DNA of 64,000 bases from positions 32,001-96,000 of the IMG/VR virus record IMGVR_UViG_3300002026_002465; one strand, given 5' to 3'. Positions 27,943 to 64,000 of this stretch are shown here, in pieces; the stretch's first letter is position 1, and every line of letters begins with the position of its first letter. The translations under genes were made by a program, and so were the position numbers. Source of the stretch: a virus. Below the pieces are notes generated by a model. The model saw only the letters and a list, made by a program, of their open reading frames with translations, did no database searches and was not told where the DNA came from.

Positions 27943-28632
27943 ATGATGAAAAGATATTCAGCTTCTGGTATTAAGACATATGAATCATGTAAATTAAAGT
28001 ATCATTTACATTACAACAAAGAAATAAAAATAGATAAAATTATTAGTGCTGACACTTCTTTTGGATTAGTAATTCATGAGATTGCAGAAAACTATACTGG
28101 TAAAAATTATCCTGAGTTATTAGAGATTGTTAATAAATACAAGAATGATTTAGATAAAGAGTTTAAAAATATTCTCCCTACAACTATAGATAACATGTTT
28201 AATTGGTTAAGGAAATACTCCAAGTTTGAATCTAAAAACGAACAAGAGTTAGAATTAAAAACAGATGATTATTGGATATATGGTTTGGCAGATAAAATAT
28301 TTGAAAAAAATAAAATGTTTGTTGATTATAAAACTGCTAAAAGTAATTTCAGAGAGAATCATCTTTTCCAAATGCAATTATATAATTTAATACTTTCTAA
28401 AAAATGGAATTGTGATCCAAGTAAAATTAAGTGTATAATATATTATCCAAGAATAAATGAAGAAGATAAGATATTATTTAATAATACTCAAATAGAGATA
28501 TTTGAAAAATCACTCAAGAAAACAATTCTTGATATAGAAACGAATACAAAATGGCTTCCAACTAAGGGATATCATTGTAGATGGTGTGAGTATAAAGAAT
28601 CAGGACATTGTCCAATACAGGAGAAAAAATGA
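27943..28632 (+). CDS. RecB/AddB-like PD-(D/E)xK exonuclease with probable 4Fe-4S cysteines
   Basis: YSAS..YESCKLKY, GLVIHEIAE, GLADKI, VDYKT, QMQLY, CRWCEY..HCP. Confidence 0.88.
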   Translation: MMKRYSASGIKTYESCKLKYHLHYNKEIKIDKIISADTSFGLVIHEIAENYTGKNYPELLEIVNKYKNDLDKEFKNILPTTIDNMFNWLRKYSKFESKNEQELELKTDDYWIYGLADKIFEKNKMFVDYKTAKSNFRENHLFQMQLYNLILSKKWNCDPSKIKCIIYYPRINEEDKILFNNTQIEIFEKSLKKTILDIETNTKWLPTKGYHCRWCEYKESGHCPIQEKK

Positions 28633-30300: not shown

Positions 30301-30364
30301 TGAATATTTCTCTAAAATAACATAAGATAATTAATATAGTTATATGTGTTATTGGGGGTTAAAT

Positions 30365-30790
30365 ATGGATGGGCAATTTGTGAATTTGATTAATTTTGGG
30401 GCCGAGTTACATAAAAATGTAGTTGAAGAAATAGAAAAAGAACATAATATTAAAGTAGAACAAATAAATGTTCCTGCTTCTTTAAATCTCAAGAAATATT
30501 CTACATATATTCAAGTGCATGATTTAGTAGAAAATAATAAAGATTTATTCTTTCAAAAAGATTTCTTTATTTTAAATCTTCCAGGTCTTCCAATATTCAG
30601 TGCATTCCTTGTTACAGAAATACATGCATTAACTGGAAAATTTCCAATTTTAGTGGAATGTTTAAAAGATTATAGCAATGATGGTATTTTTAGTCATTAT
30701 AAGTTTAAAAGATTATATGATTTAGAAAGAGAAAGGGTTCAATCAAGAGAAAAATATAAACAAAATGTTCGTTCTGAGGATAAAGAATAA
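30365..30790 (+). CDS. Csx15-like protein (candidate cA4 ring nuclease/sponge); ORF track start 30344
   Basis: LINF..INVP..QV..LV..ILNLPGL..LVTEIHALTGKFP..YDLERERVQSRE follows the Csx15 motif order; SD GGGGG before ATG 30365. Confidence 0.65.
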   Translation: MDGQFVNLINFGAELHKNVVEEIEKEHNIKVEQINVPASLNLKKYSTYIQVHDLVENNKDLFFQKDFFILNLPGLPIFSAFLVTEIHALTGKFPILVECLKDYSNDGIFSHYKFKRLYDLERERVQSREKYKQNVRSEDKE

Positions 30791-31054
30791 ATGAAAAGCG
30801 TTGAAGATTTTTTTAATATTATAAATGAAAAGCTTTGGAGAGACAATATTTCTTCTGAAGCTGAGGCTCATTTTGATAAAATGATTGAAGAACTCATTGA
30901 AAATAAACAAGAAATAATAAATGAAGTTGTTCAAGATATTAAAAGAATTGAATCAATAAAAGTTAAAGAAAGTGAAAGCTTTGAATATTCTACTTTTAAA
31001 AAATGGTTAGATAAATATATTGTAGAAAATATGCAAAACTTTCTGGAGAACTAA
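30791..31054 (+). CDS. Hypothetical protein
   Basis: ORF track, coupled. Confidence 0.6.
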   Translation: MKSVEDFFNIINEKLWRDNISSEAEAHFDKMIEELIENKQEIINEVVQDIKRIESIKVKESESFEYSTFKKWLDKYIVENMQNFLEN

Positions 31055-31840
31055 ATGGATTTATCAGCCCTTGTAACACAACTCCTACCTACAACACAAA
31101 ATAAACAAACTATTCAAGATCTCCTCCCTACGCAACAAACCAATAGATCATATCCAGATACAAAACCTATTCAACAAACAAAACTAAATATAACTGCAAG
31201 TTTATTCTCTGCATGTGAAAGAAATGGAGAATGGATATTGTGGTATAATTTAGAATGGCCTGGATTTATGCCATTAAATCAAAGACAAGCAACGGAACAA
31301 CAATTAAGGAATTTTTATGATTATTTCGTTGAATTAAAATCATATCCTGGCGAAGAGAAATACTATAAATTAAAAAGTATTGATAAAAAAGATATGAAAA
31401 TTATATTTGATGCTGATTTGTGGATAAGAGAAAACCTTTTAGGTGTTAAACAAACATTCTCTCCTCCACTTTCATTATTGTATAAATCAAGAAAAACACT
31501 ACCAACACTAGCTTATATAACTGCAGGAACTGGGGAATTAAGCAAGTTCTTGTGTGATAGATTTCAAACTTATTTAAAGAATAAATCTCAATTATTAAAA
31601 CATAGAGAATTTGGATTCTTGAAAAAAGTTGGAATTGAATTATTTGACTACTCTTTTTCATTTAGAGATATGACATATAGAGCTACATTAAAATTTTCTG
31701 TTATTCTTGCATCACTTGCAGCTTATATGATATGGAAATATCAAAAAGACCTTAGTAAAAAAGAAATAGACTCCCTCCAAAAAAAGGCTTCTAATATGAA
31801 AGATGTCAAAGGCCTTGATAAATATATAAAGAGGTTGTAA
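31055..31840 (+). CDS. Hypothetical protein with C-terminal hydrophobic segment
   Basis: 261-aa ORF; FSVILASLAAYMIW. Confidence 0.65.
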   Translation: MDLSALVTQLLPTTQNKQTIQDLLPTQQTNRSYPDTKPIQQTKLNITASLFSACERNGEWILWYNLEWPGFMPLNQRQATEQQLRNFYDYFVELKSYPGEEKYYKLKSIDKKDMKIIFDADLWIRENLLGVKQTFSPPLSLLYKSRKTLPTLAYITAGTGELSKFLCDRFQTYLKNKSQLLKHREFGFLKKVGIELFDYSFSFRDMTYRATLKFSVILASLAAYMIWKYQKDLSKKEIDSLQKKASNMKDVKGLDKYIKRL

Positions 31841-32166
31841 TGTTATCACTTACTTTTGATGGAAAAATAATTTTTAATAAAAAAAGAATAGCTAACAAAG
31901 AGTTGGCTGATATTCTTGGAAAGTTTTTAATGGAATTTATTCCAAGATATATTACAACAAATGGAAATAGTTTGCCTGAATATATTAAGATAGTAAAAGA
32001 TGAAGATGGATCAATATGTTCAAAAGTTAAATATGAAAATTCTTATGGAAGAAATGGTGTATCAACAGATTATCTTGATAATTATTCAGAAGATATATTT
32101 ATTGAAAATATTTTAATGTATATATTTGAAAATAAAATAAAATTAAAACCAATAGGACATTTTTAA
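31840..32166 (+). CDS. Small orphan, C-terminal IF-motif family
   Basis: ...ENILMYIFEN. Confidence 0.6.
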   Translation: MLSLTFDGKIIFNKKRIANKELADILGKFLMEFIPRYITTNGNSLPEYIKIVKDEDGSICSKVKYENSYGRNGVSTDYLDNYSEDIFIENILMYIFENKIKLKPIGHF

Positions 32167-33270: not shown

Positions 33271-33884
33271 TGGCCAATGTTTTATTCCAAAAACTTTCAC
33301 AGATATTACAAAAAAATTATGGGCCTAATTCAAATGTAATACCATTTGGAATAGGAAGAGTATATTCATGTGCATATAGAAACTGGCATCATGATCCTAA
33401 ACCTTTATTGTTTATTATAGGATCTGATGCCTTTTATACTGTTGGAATAAACATACATTATGTTGGTCTCTATGGTTCTGCTTTAATAAACTTTATTAAT
33501 AATTCTAGAAAAGCTAATGTTGTTTTTACTTCTCATACAATATATCAAGTTTTAAAAACACAATATCCTATGATACCTAAAATAGCTTATAGAAAATATT
33601 TTACATCAATGTTAAGAGGTGTAAAAGTATCAGAAGGATTAAGTCAAATACAAGAACCTGTAAATACAGTAGTAGCTTTAAGAGAAAATTGGGTAAGACA
33701 ATTAAATAACGTCATTAGACCAAAAGTTTTTTCATATAATAAAGTTCAATATAATCCTCTAGAAGCTCAAAAAATAGCATCACAAACAATTCAAATACAA
33801 TATCGTCAAGATTCGCAAAAACCATATCAAAATCAGAAAGGTATATCTGTGCAATATAACCCTCAGGAGAATATTAATGGATGA
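33270..33884 (+). CDS. T4 gp2-like DNA end protector
   Basis: HDPKPLLFII..GINIHY..AYRKY pattern resembling gp2 family. Confidence 0.5.
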   Translation: MANVLFQKLSQILQKNYGPNSNVIPFGIGRVYSCAYRNWHHDPKPLLFIIGSDAFYTVGINIHYVGLYGSALINFINNSRKANVVFTSHTIYQVLKTQYPMIPKIAYRKYFTSMLRGVKVSEGLSQIQEPVNTVVALRENWVRQLNNVIRPKVFSYNKVQYNPLEAQKIASQTIQIQYRQDSQKPYQNQKGISVQYNPQENING

Positions 33885-63085: not shown

Positions 63086-64000
63086 TTACGAATAGAATAT
63101 TTTTCTATCTCCTGATAAATACTTTAATTTATAGTTTTCTATCATTGAATCTTGAAGAAAATAAAATTGATTTAAATGATAATACTCGTTCAGTTCAATT
63201 TGTCTATAAAATGTTTTTAATCCTTGCCATGAATTAGAGTGTTTACCTAGACCTAAAACAGAATTTAAATATCCATTAATATTATTAGGCTTATCGAAAT
63301 AAATAAAGTTAAAATTAAAATCATAATTTTTTCTTAAAAAATTATAAAAATTTTCATTTGTTATATCTTTTTCATAATCATATTTATTGTTTTCTAATAT
63401 ATTTTTTAGTAATTTATCAATATAATTTATTTTTACATCTCTAAGTTTATTTTCAGCAAAATCATTATGAAATGTTGTTGTGAGTTTACTATATACAGTT
63501 ATTTTAGGAATATCAAGATTAGATAAGAAATTAAAATCATTTATCAATGTTTGATTGCTTTGATCTGAAAGCCCAGCCATTAAATCAACATTAATAATAT
63601 GCTTTTTATTTTTAAATTTATTAATAATATGTCTTAGTCTTTTTTCAATTATTTCTATTGACGGGTTAAATCTGTCTTCTGACGTTAAAGGTTGTGGACT
63701 TAATGATTGAATTCCTATACTTACTCTATTTATAAAATTAGAATCTGCTAAAAAATCTATTTTATCTTCAGTAAGAGTAGAGATACTTGTTTCAAAACTA
63801 TATATATTGTTGTTCATATCTAAATTAAAATTAGATTTTATCATATCAAACAATCTTTTCATTTGATATGGCTGGAGTAGTGATGCAGTCCCTCCACCTA
63901 TATAAAGAGACTTAAATACTTGATTCTTAAATAATGGTGAATACTCTTTCATTTGTAGTTCTAAATTATTTAAATAATCATTTATTTGTTCTTCATTTTT
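63086..64000 (-). CDS. HemN/HemW-like radical SAM protein, 5' end beyond window
   Basis: SLYIGGGTAS, RVSIGIQS, NVDLMAGL; frame open to window edge, CxxxCxxC not visible. Confidence 0.75.
   Translation of the reverse strand, partial: KNEEQINDYLNNLELQMKEYSPLFKNQVFKSLYIGGGTASLLQPYQMKRLFDMIKSNFNLDMNNNIYSFETSISTLTEDKIDFLADSNFINRVSIGIQSLSPQPLTSEDRFNPSIEIIEKRLRHIINKFKNKKHIINVDLMAGLSDQSNQTLINDFNFLSNLDIPKITVYSKLTTTFHNDFAENKLRDVKINYIDKLLKNILENNKYDYEKDITNENFYNFLRKNYDFNFNFIYFDKPNNINGYLNSVLGLGKHSNSWQGLKTFYRQIELNEYYHLNQFYFLQDSMIENYKLKYLSGDRKIFYS

Follow-up and report, generated by a model that had tools for sequence, protein, structure and literature searches.

A large-phage lineage of Csx15-family proteins without either catalytic residue: a candidate trap for cyclic oligoadenylate signals

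The window analysed here is a stretch of 64,000 nucleotides, bases 32001-96000 of the IMG/VR virus record IMGVR_UViG_3300002026_002465, which is 177,948 bp long, is labelled "provirus" and was estimated by CheckV to be 74% complete. On its plus strand, at 30365..30790 including the stop codon, lies a gene for a stand-alone protein of 141 residues, referred to here as P0001, that was assigned to the Csx15 family from its open reading frame and translation, the NF040560 profile, hhalign and an AlphaFold2 model. Both residues that cut the ligand in canonical Csx15 are replaced in P0001 and its phage clade, and the residues that contact the ligand are kept. With moderate confidence, P0001 is interpreted as a non-cutting trap for cyclic tetra-adenylate (cA4) or a related cyclic nucleotide, which would act in counter-defence against type III CRISPR or the cyclic-oligonucleotide-based anti-phage signalling system (CBASS).

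In 2024 Csx15 was a predicted ring nuclease of unclear activity. Members of the family are associated chiefly with Cas10 and cA4; of cellular Csx15, 25% comes from genomes that have no type III system. In the work of Chi et al. (bioRxiv 10.64898/2026.01.21.700848), PfCsx15 acted as a sponge for cA4 and CliCsx15 as a slow cutter of the same ligand. Mutation H13A in CliCsx15 abolished cleavage and had little effect on oligomerisation, H90 also being implicated in catalysis; mutation H11A in PfCsx15 abolished both oligomerisation and sequestration. The same authors had seen no phage Csx15 and questioned whether the output of type III systems could be overcome by sponging. Klimavicius et al. (bioRxiv 10.64898/2026.10.26.761840) described fast cleavage of broad specificity by Csx15 in filaments and defined H8 and R125 of HaCsx15 as catalytic; the H8A and R125A variants did not cleave and kept cA4-dependent multimerisation, and mixing the two restored activity. 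Canonical Csx15 was also reported there to accept cA3-cA6, 3'3'3'-cAAG and 2'3'3'-cAAA. In addition, that study listed just over 20 viral homologues, expected to be nucleases, for which the name AcrIII-3 was proposed; as of October 2026 this was a proposal without an assay. The idea that a phage Csx15 could act against type III CRISPR, put forward for this gene in an original prediction made from the sequence alone, is thus not new, since AcrIII-3 was proposed in October 2026 (bioRxiv 10.64898/2026.10.26.761840). Absent from both preprints is the subject of the present analysis, an abundant and conserved large-phage clade without either catalytic residue.

Results

Family membership of P0001

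The NCBIfam model NF040560 (CAS_Csx15) scored P0001 at 36.2 bits, above its cut-off of 35, with E = 6e-9 and coverage of profile positions 2-124 of 125; the PADLOC Csx15 model matched it with E = 1e-6. The margin above the NF040560 cut-off is small because the phage clade is divergent; copies from four of the five related phage records also exceeded this cut-off. A close-clade profile (A1) searched against 1.84 billion representatives yielded 47 proteins that formed a graded series, and P0001 together with 40 of these made up a mixed-relative alignment (A2), 39 of whose 41 proteins matched NF040560 (best E = 1e-38). When the A2 profile was compared with PDB chains, it matched CliCsx15 (9teu, E = 1e-19), PfCsx15 (9tet, E = 9e-13) and CbCash (9ylu, E = 1e-19). 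The clade-only profile reached CbCash faintly and nothing else among the PDB sequences, 9teu and 9tet being reached only with the broader A2. Aligned by hhalign with a canonical profile (A3) built from 18 His-bearing Csx15 members, the clade-only profile gave a probability of 99.8% and an E value of 2e-27 over 126 columns. No Pfam model matched P0001, and the single PHROGs match was weak (E = 0.09) and to a family of unknown function.

Judged by these profile comparisons, homology of P0001 to Csx15 is secure and far beyond chance, in agreement with the original prediction, which had assigned the protein to this family from the order of its motifs. Each motif quoted there was found in the order given: LINF at residues 8-11, NFGAE at 10-14, INVP at 34-37, LNLPGL at 70-75, TEIHALTGKFP at 84-94 and DLERERVQSR at 119-128.

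Residues lost and residues kept

In canonical Csx15, dimers stack head to tail around cA4, and the ring is then cut jointly by a His from the head face of one dimer and an Arg from the tail helix of its neighbour. Residues of P0001 were mapped through an HMMER alignment to 9tet and 9teu, through MAFFT alignments and by hhalign. Relative to the published numbering, chain positions in both PDB entries carry an offset of +7, and the spacing of the published His residues fits exactly.

The head motif N10-F11-G12-A13-E14 is encoded at 30392..30406 (plus strand), and all three methods placed A13 opposite the catalytic His, which is H8 in HaCsx15 and CsCsx15, H13 in CliCsx15 and H11 in PfCsx15. This upheld the earlier reading, supported by both MAFFT and hhalign, that the usual NFSHP, in canonical members NF(S/G)HP, has become NFGAE. 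The replacement is general in the clade, where position 13 was Ala, Ser, Thr or Val in 39 of 39 aligned members. His16 was considered as a stand-in for the lost head His and was rejected; it was found only in the closest relatives, and Lys, Arg, Ser or Asn occupies the position elsewhere.

The second cutting residue lies in the C-terminal helix, where codons R124-Y131 occupy 30734..30757 (plus strand). Of the canonical Arg triad, the first two members, which make phosphate contacts in canonical Csx15, are retained as R124 and R128, 4 and 8 residues past an invariant Leu, and are invariant in the clade. The third Arg, 11 residues past the Leu and equivalent to the catalytic R125 of HaCsx15 by a mapping inferred from the 4,3 spacing, is replaced by Y131, with Tyr or Phe at this position throughout the clade and K132 next to it. 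On the same helix R122 is invariant in the clade and K132 is invariant or nearly so.

The other residues linked to the ligand have been kept. H87 (codon at 30623..30625, plus strand) aligned in 9tet and 9teu with PfCsx15 H82 and CliCsx15 H90; it is conserved in at least 90% of the clade, and three members are without it. Y112 (30698..30700, plus strand) corresponds to the adenine-stacking aromatic residue, which is Y113 in CliCsx15, F106 in PfCsx15 and F275 in CbCash; in every aligned chain it lies 8 residues N-terminal of the invariant Leu. Six of the seven columns that are invariant in canonical Csx15 (in P0144, H8, P70, G88, P91, L115, R119 and R123) were kept in P0001, the His alone having been lost, and the clade alignment contained 35 invariant columns, the Arg pair among them.

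Another stretch with little or no variation in the phage clade is the loop at residues 39-50 (30479-30514, SLNLKK.ST.IQ), which is variable in canonical Csx15 and was coil in the model; it may form a ligand or partner site particular to the clade.

Overall, P0001 shares with HaCsx15, CsCsx15 and CliCsx15 the family, length and order of secondary structure, as well as the NLPG motif, the middle His, the aromatic residue, the invariant Leu and the first two tail-helix Arg. It differs from them in the head His to Ala and third Arg to Tyr replacements, in its own invariant loop, and in its location in a large phage and not beside cas genes. From its sequence, P0001 resembles a naturally occurring mutant of both catalytic residues in which the binding face has been preserved, and by analogy with the characterised mutants retention of ligand binding is likely but not certain.

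Predicted fold

An AlphaFold2 model of P0001, built from the clade alignment, had a mean predicted local distance difference test score (pLDDT) of 87 and a predicted template modelling score (pTM) of 0.77. The order of elements in the model was strand-helix-strand-helix-strand-helix-strand-strand-helix, ending in a long C-terminal helix at residues 120-139. The model thus predicts a beta-alpha, Rossmann-like protein with the five strands, beta-hairpin and C-terminal helix of the SAVED/CARF-related Csx15 fold.

Modelling returned the Rossmann-like architecture; a Foldseek search of the model against the PDB returned nothing at E <= 0.001, and the solved Csx15 entries were absent from all fold-library results. 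The earlier description of the protein as CARF-related was roughly right, although the nearest solved folds were SAVED domains of CBASS. None of the sponges Acb2, Tad1 and Tad2 was among the structural neighbours listed for P0001.

Evolution of the His-less lineage

The His-less proteins fell together in a maximum-likelihood tree of 54 rows, as a single group of 30 (support 99/88) that is sister to the His-bearing proteins P0114 and P0120, and two label changes sufficed across the tree. The Arg pair, too, is gone from many lineages inside the His-less group; H87, R124 and R128 are all retained in the clade of P0001.

Other architectures were seen among the relatives. Csx15 occurs in tandem in P0112 (283 residues, both copies His-less) and in P0125 (327 residues, the first copy His-less and the second His-bearing), and P0126 (304 residues) is a fusion of Schlafen to a Csx15 domain with a His-less head motif. 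These three proteins illustrate a path leading from Csx15 to sensor forms and SAVED-like ones.

The gene is under strong purifying selection. Over eight related contigs the Csx15-like protein kept 53-82% identity, compared with 24-72% or undetectable similarity for most of its neighbours; only a partial HNH match attained comparable identity, on some contigs. On the two contigs most distant from the record, only three of the block's genes remained detectable, and the Csx15-like gene was by far the best conserved of them.

The gene and its phage setting

The reading frame opens with an ATG at 30365 and closes with a TAA at 30788-30790 after 141 codons, with no in-frame TAG. A run of GGGGG at 30354..30358 (plus strand), inferred from the sequence to be the likely ribosome-binding site, lies 6 nt before this ATG, and homologues of P0001 start at the equivalent Met; because these two observations agree, 30365 was preferred to an upstream ATG at 30344 as the start. 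A promoter and terminator scan found fewer sigma-70-like sites around the gene than in shuffled sequence and no terminator, and no RNA run was listed among the sequencing runs that contain this DNA.

The record has 29% G+C and 34 tRNA genes, and it encodes tape-measure-like and tail-fibre proteins, HNH endonucleases, RuvC and a Cas4-like PD-(D/E)XK nuclease. Its DNA occurs in runs of a single microbial-mat study. Close homologues of P0001, at 54-88% identity, fell into 103 clusters (clustered at 90%) on contigs of up to 499 kb. Gene order was shared with contigs of 437-480 kb and with six IMG/VR contigs of 82-388 kb, and ran from RuvC through the Cas4-like nuclease, two or three unknown genes, the Csx15-like gene, a gene for a protein of about 90 residues, one for a protein of about 255 residues and HNH to large structural genes. 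The Csx15-like gene was present in single copy in each of five phage records. The phage setting claimed in the original prediction is therefore well founded, given the virus record, the tail genes, the 34 tRNA genes and the syntenic viral contigs of 82-480 kb.

That prediction had also noted an absence of cas genes in the window, which proved to extend to the whole 178-kb record, where no cas gene and no Cas10 scored over cut-off. The record and four viral records related to it, one being 98% complete, yielded no Cas10 over cut-off, no SMODS cyclase and no AcrIII-1 (PF08960); some of the records are incomplete, which makes these absences weak evidence. In the same records no second known ring nuclease was found. 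Since no Cas10 or SMODS cyclase was detected, there is no sign of a signal of the phage's own for P0001 to regulate.

When the 27-34 kb region was compared by blastn with 50,697 phage records, nothing matched. In a set of 185,579 species genomes only two carried the gene, both on contigs of metagenome-assembled genomes with the phage gene order, one labelled Thermoplasmatales and the other, by contrast, Gammaproteobacteria. Both are most likely mis-binned phage DNA. The "provirus" label is doubtful because these sole two genome matches look like mis-binned phage DNA, and the relatives of the record are linear contigs of viral origin, 82-480 kb in length. Label and bins alike look like artefacts. 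A Pfam search for Gp23, the T4-type capsid protein, gave no match, and its controls were likewise without a match.

Directly 3' of the Csx15-like gene, and without gaps, three further plus-strand genes follow at 30791-31054, 31055-31840 and 31840-32166; the first junction reads TAAATG, and the subsequent starts lie at or within the preceding stop codon. Those for proteins of 87 and 261 residues are conserved together with the Csx15-like gene in most of the related contigs, and their products could be partners of P0001. Searches of the flanking genes against PHROGs and Pfam, and of the 261-residue neighbour against a protein atlas, returned nothing usable. The Cas4-like PD-(D/E)XK nuclease is encoded 1.7 kb upstream at 27943-28632 (plus strand; PF12705, E = 7e-19; Cas_Cas4, E = 1e-5), has a C-terminal Cys cluster and is syntenic in all relatives.

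Two further features of the record were observed. A tRNA with a CTA anticodon, an amber suppressor reported by ARAGORN as Pyl, is encoded at 1713-1785 of the window (33713-33785 of the record), in a tRNA island that spans 9525-34743 of the record. Recoding of TAG was considered and was not evident, as TAG closes 22 of 110 long frames and no more than about 12 kb of long frames is gained when it is read as sense. At the far end of the window a radical-SAM gene cluster begins at 63086-64000 (minus strand) and continues onward.

Discussion

Because its cutting residues are replaced and its binding residues kept, P0001 is read as a cyclic-oligonucleotide trap. In the mechanism proposed here, the replacement of both cutting residues in the phage clade (A13 and Y131), with the phosphate-binding Arg pair, the middle His and the adenine-stacking aromatic residue maintained under strong purifying selection, would leave a protein able to bind cA4 or a related signal, on which it would probably also polymerise, with little or no cutting. 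If P0001 is abundant during infection, it would keep the signal from the CARF and SAVED effectors of type III CRISPR, and perhaps from those of CBASS. The suggestion in the original prediction that P0001 is a non-catalytic sponge, which had been based on the NFGAE motif, gains support from the additional loss at Y131 and from the binding residues that remain.

Characterised relatives offer precedents, by analogy, for such a trap. The Csx15 domain of CbCash (9ylu/9ylv/9ylx), which serves as a sensor, binds cA4 in solved filaments via F275 and has Gln opposite both the head and the middle His in the A2-profile alignment; it differs from P0001 in being fused to a Schlafen tRNase as a defence effector, and its cA4 touches one dimer only. 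PfCsx15 (9tet), an orphan protein of Pseudomonas fluorescens, is a non-enzymatic cA4 sponge. Unlike P0001, it is cellular and not viral, has all three Arg, and both retains H11 and requires it for binding. The viral AcrIII-3 proteins resemble P0001 in setting, as Csx15 homologues from viral metagenomic genomes proposed to act against cyclic-nucleotide defence. They were proposed as ring nucleases, whereas the P0001 clade is without both of the HaCsx15 catalytic residues; moreover, the AcrIII-3 copies were called rare (just over 20) and the present clade comprises 103 clusters, the two sets being compared by description only. With Acb2, Tad1, Tad2, AcrIII-1 and AcrIII-2 (vSAVED), P0001 would share the proposed mode of action, that of a small, abundant phage protein that removes a defence signal; no sequence relationship to any of them was found.

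A more specific version, in which the His-less lineage is a core gene of a group of large phages (82-480 kb) and acts as a filament-forming, stoichiometric trap for cA4, is put forward only tentatively. Its core-like conservation is unusual for a counter-defence gene and leaves room for another role; it is the main argument for the likeliest alternative, namely that P0001 serves the phage's own biology.

Under that alternative, which we consider unlikely, P0001 would be a nucleotide-binding sensor or a filament-forming regulator that works with the products of the downstream 87- and 261-residue genes in a replication and recombination block. Its gene is the best conserved of the block and has a fixed place between the Cas4-like nuclease and the HNH and packaging genes in contigs of 82-480 kb, and the downstream genes begin at or within the preceding stop codon, an arrangement suggestive of translational coupling. 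Csx15 domains are also known to act as sensors in Cash, and the Schlafen fusion P0126 is among the relatives. Against this, P0001 is a stand-alone domain with no fused effector, its neighbours matched no known family, no phage-borne cyclase was found in the record or the four related viral records, and the residues that have been kept are those that contact cA4 in the canonical proteins.

It is more doubtful still that P0001 remains a ring nuclease that destroys cA4 in the manner expected of AcrIII-3, through H87, R122, K132 or residues of loop 39-50. Such an activity would be consistent with the part ascribed to CliCsx15 H90, the equivalent of H87, in catalysis, with the invariance or near-invariance of R122 and K132 on the same helix, and with the expectation of Klimavicius et al. 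(bioRxiv 10.64898/2026.10.26.761840) that viral Csx15 proteins are nucleases. However, both of the residues whose single mutation kills HaCsx15 cleavage are missing, their loss is ancient and common to the whole branch, and three members of the clade are without H87 as well.

A non-cutting trap could also be aimed at a different signal, such as the cyclic trinucleotides of CBASS, cA3 or cA6, and not at type III CRISPR. Canonical Csx15 accepts cA3-cA6, 3'3'3'-cAAG and 2'3'3'-cAAA, the closest solved folds are CBASS SAVED domains, and the clade-specific loop together with R122 could retune specificity; we nevertheless regard this as improbable, since the family is chiefly tied to Cas10 and cA4 and the symmetric-dimer residues for cA4 have been retained. 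The loss of the otherwise invariant catalytic His and the loss of binding in PfCsx15 H11A might suggest that P0001 no longer binds any nucleotide and is a remnant, either decayed or structural only; this is very improbable in view of the strong purifying selection over more than 100 clusters and the 35 invariant columns, including the Arg pair.

To our knowledge, the known viral answers to type III signalling are all enzymes, namely AcrIII-1, AcrIII-2/vSAVED and the 2H phosphodiesterases, and cyclic-nucleotide sponges have so far been known against CBASS and Thoeris only, not against type III CRISPR. If P0001 is a trap for cA4, it would be the first inhibitor of type III CRISPR signalling of the sponge type and not the nuclease type, and sponging would be effective against type III systems despite their high signal output. 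The clade is abundant, conserved and naturally disarmed, and it thereby provides a concrete protein with which to settle the disagreement over whether Csx15 occurs in phages and whether it could work there as a sponge or as a nuclease, as well as a natural set of "mutants" for separating the binding from the cutting residues of Csx15. If P0001 should instead have a role internal to the phage, it would represent a new use of the CARF/SAVED-type sensor fold.
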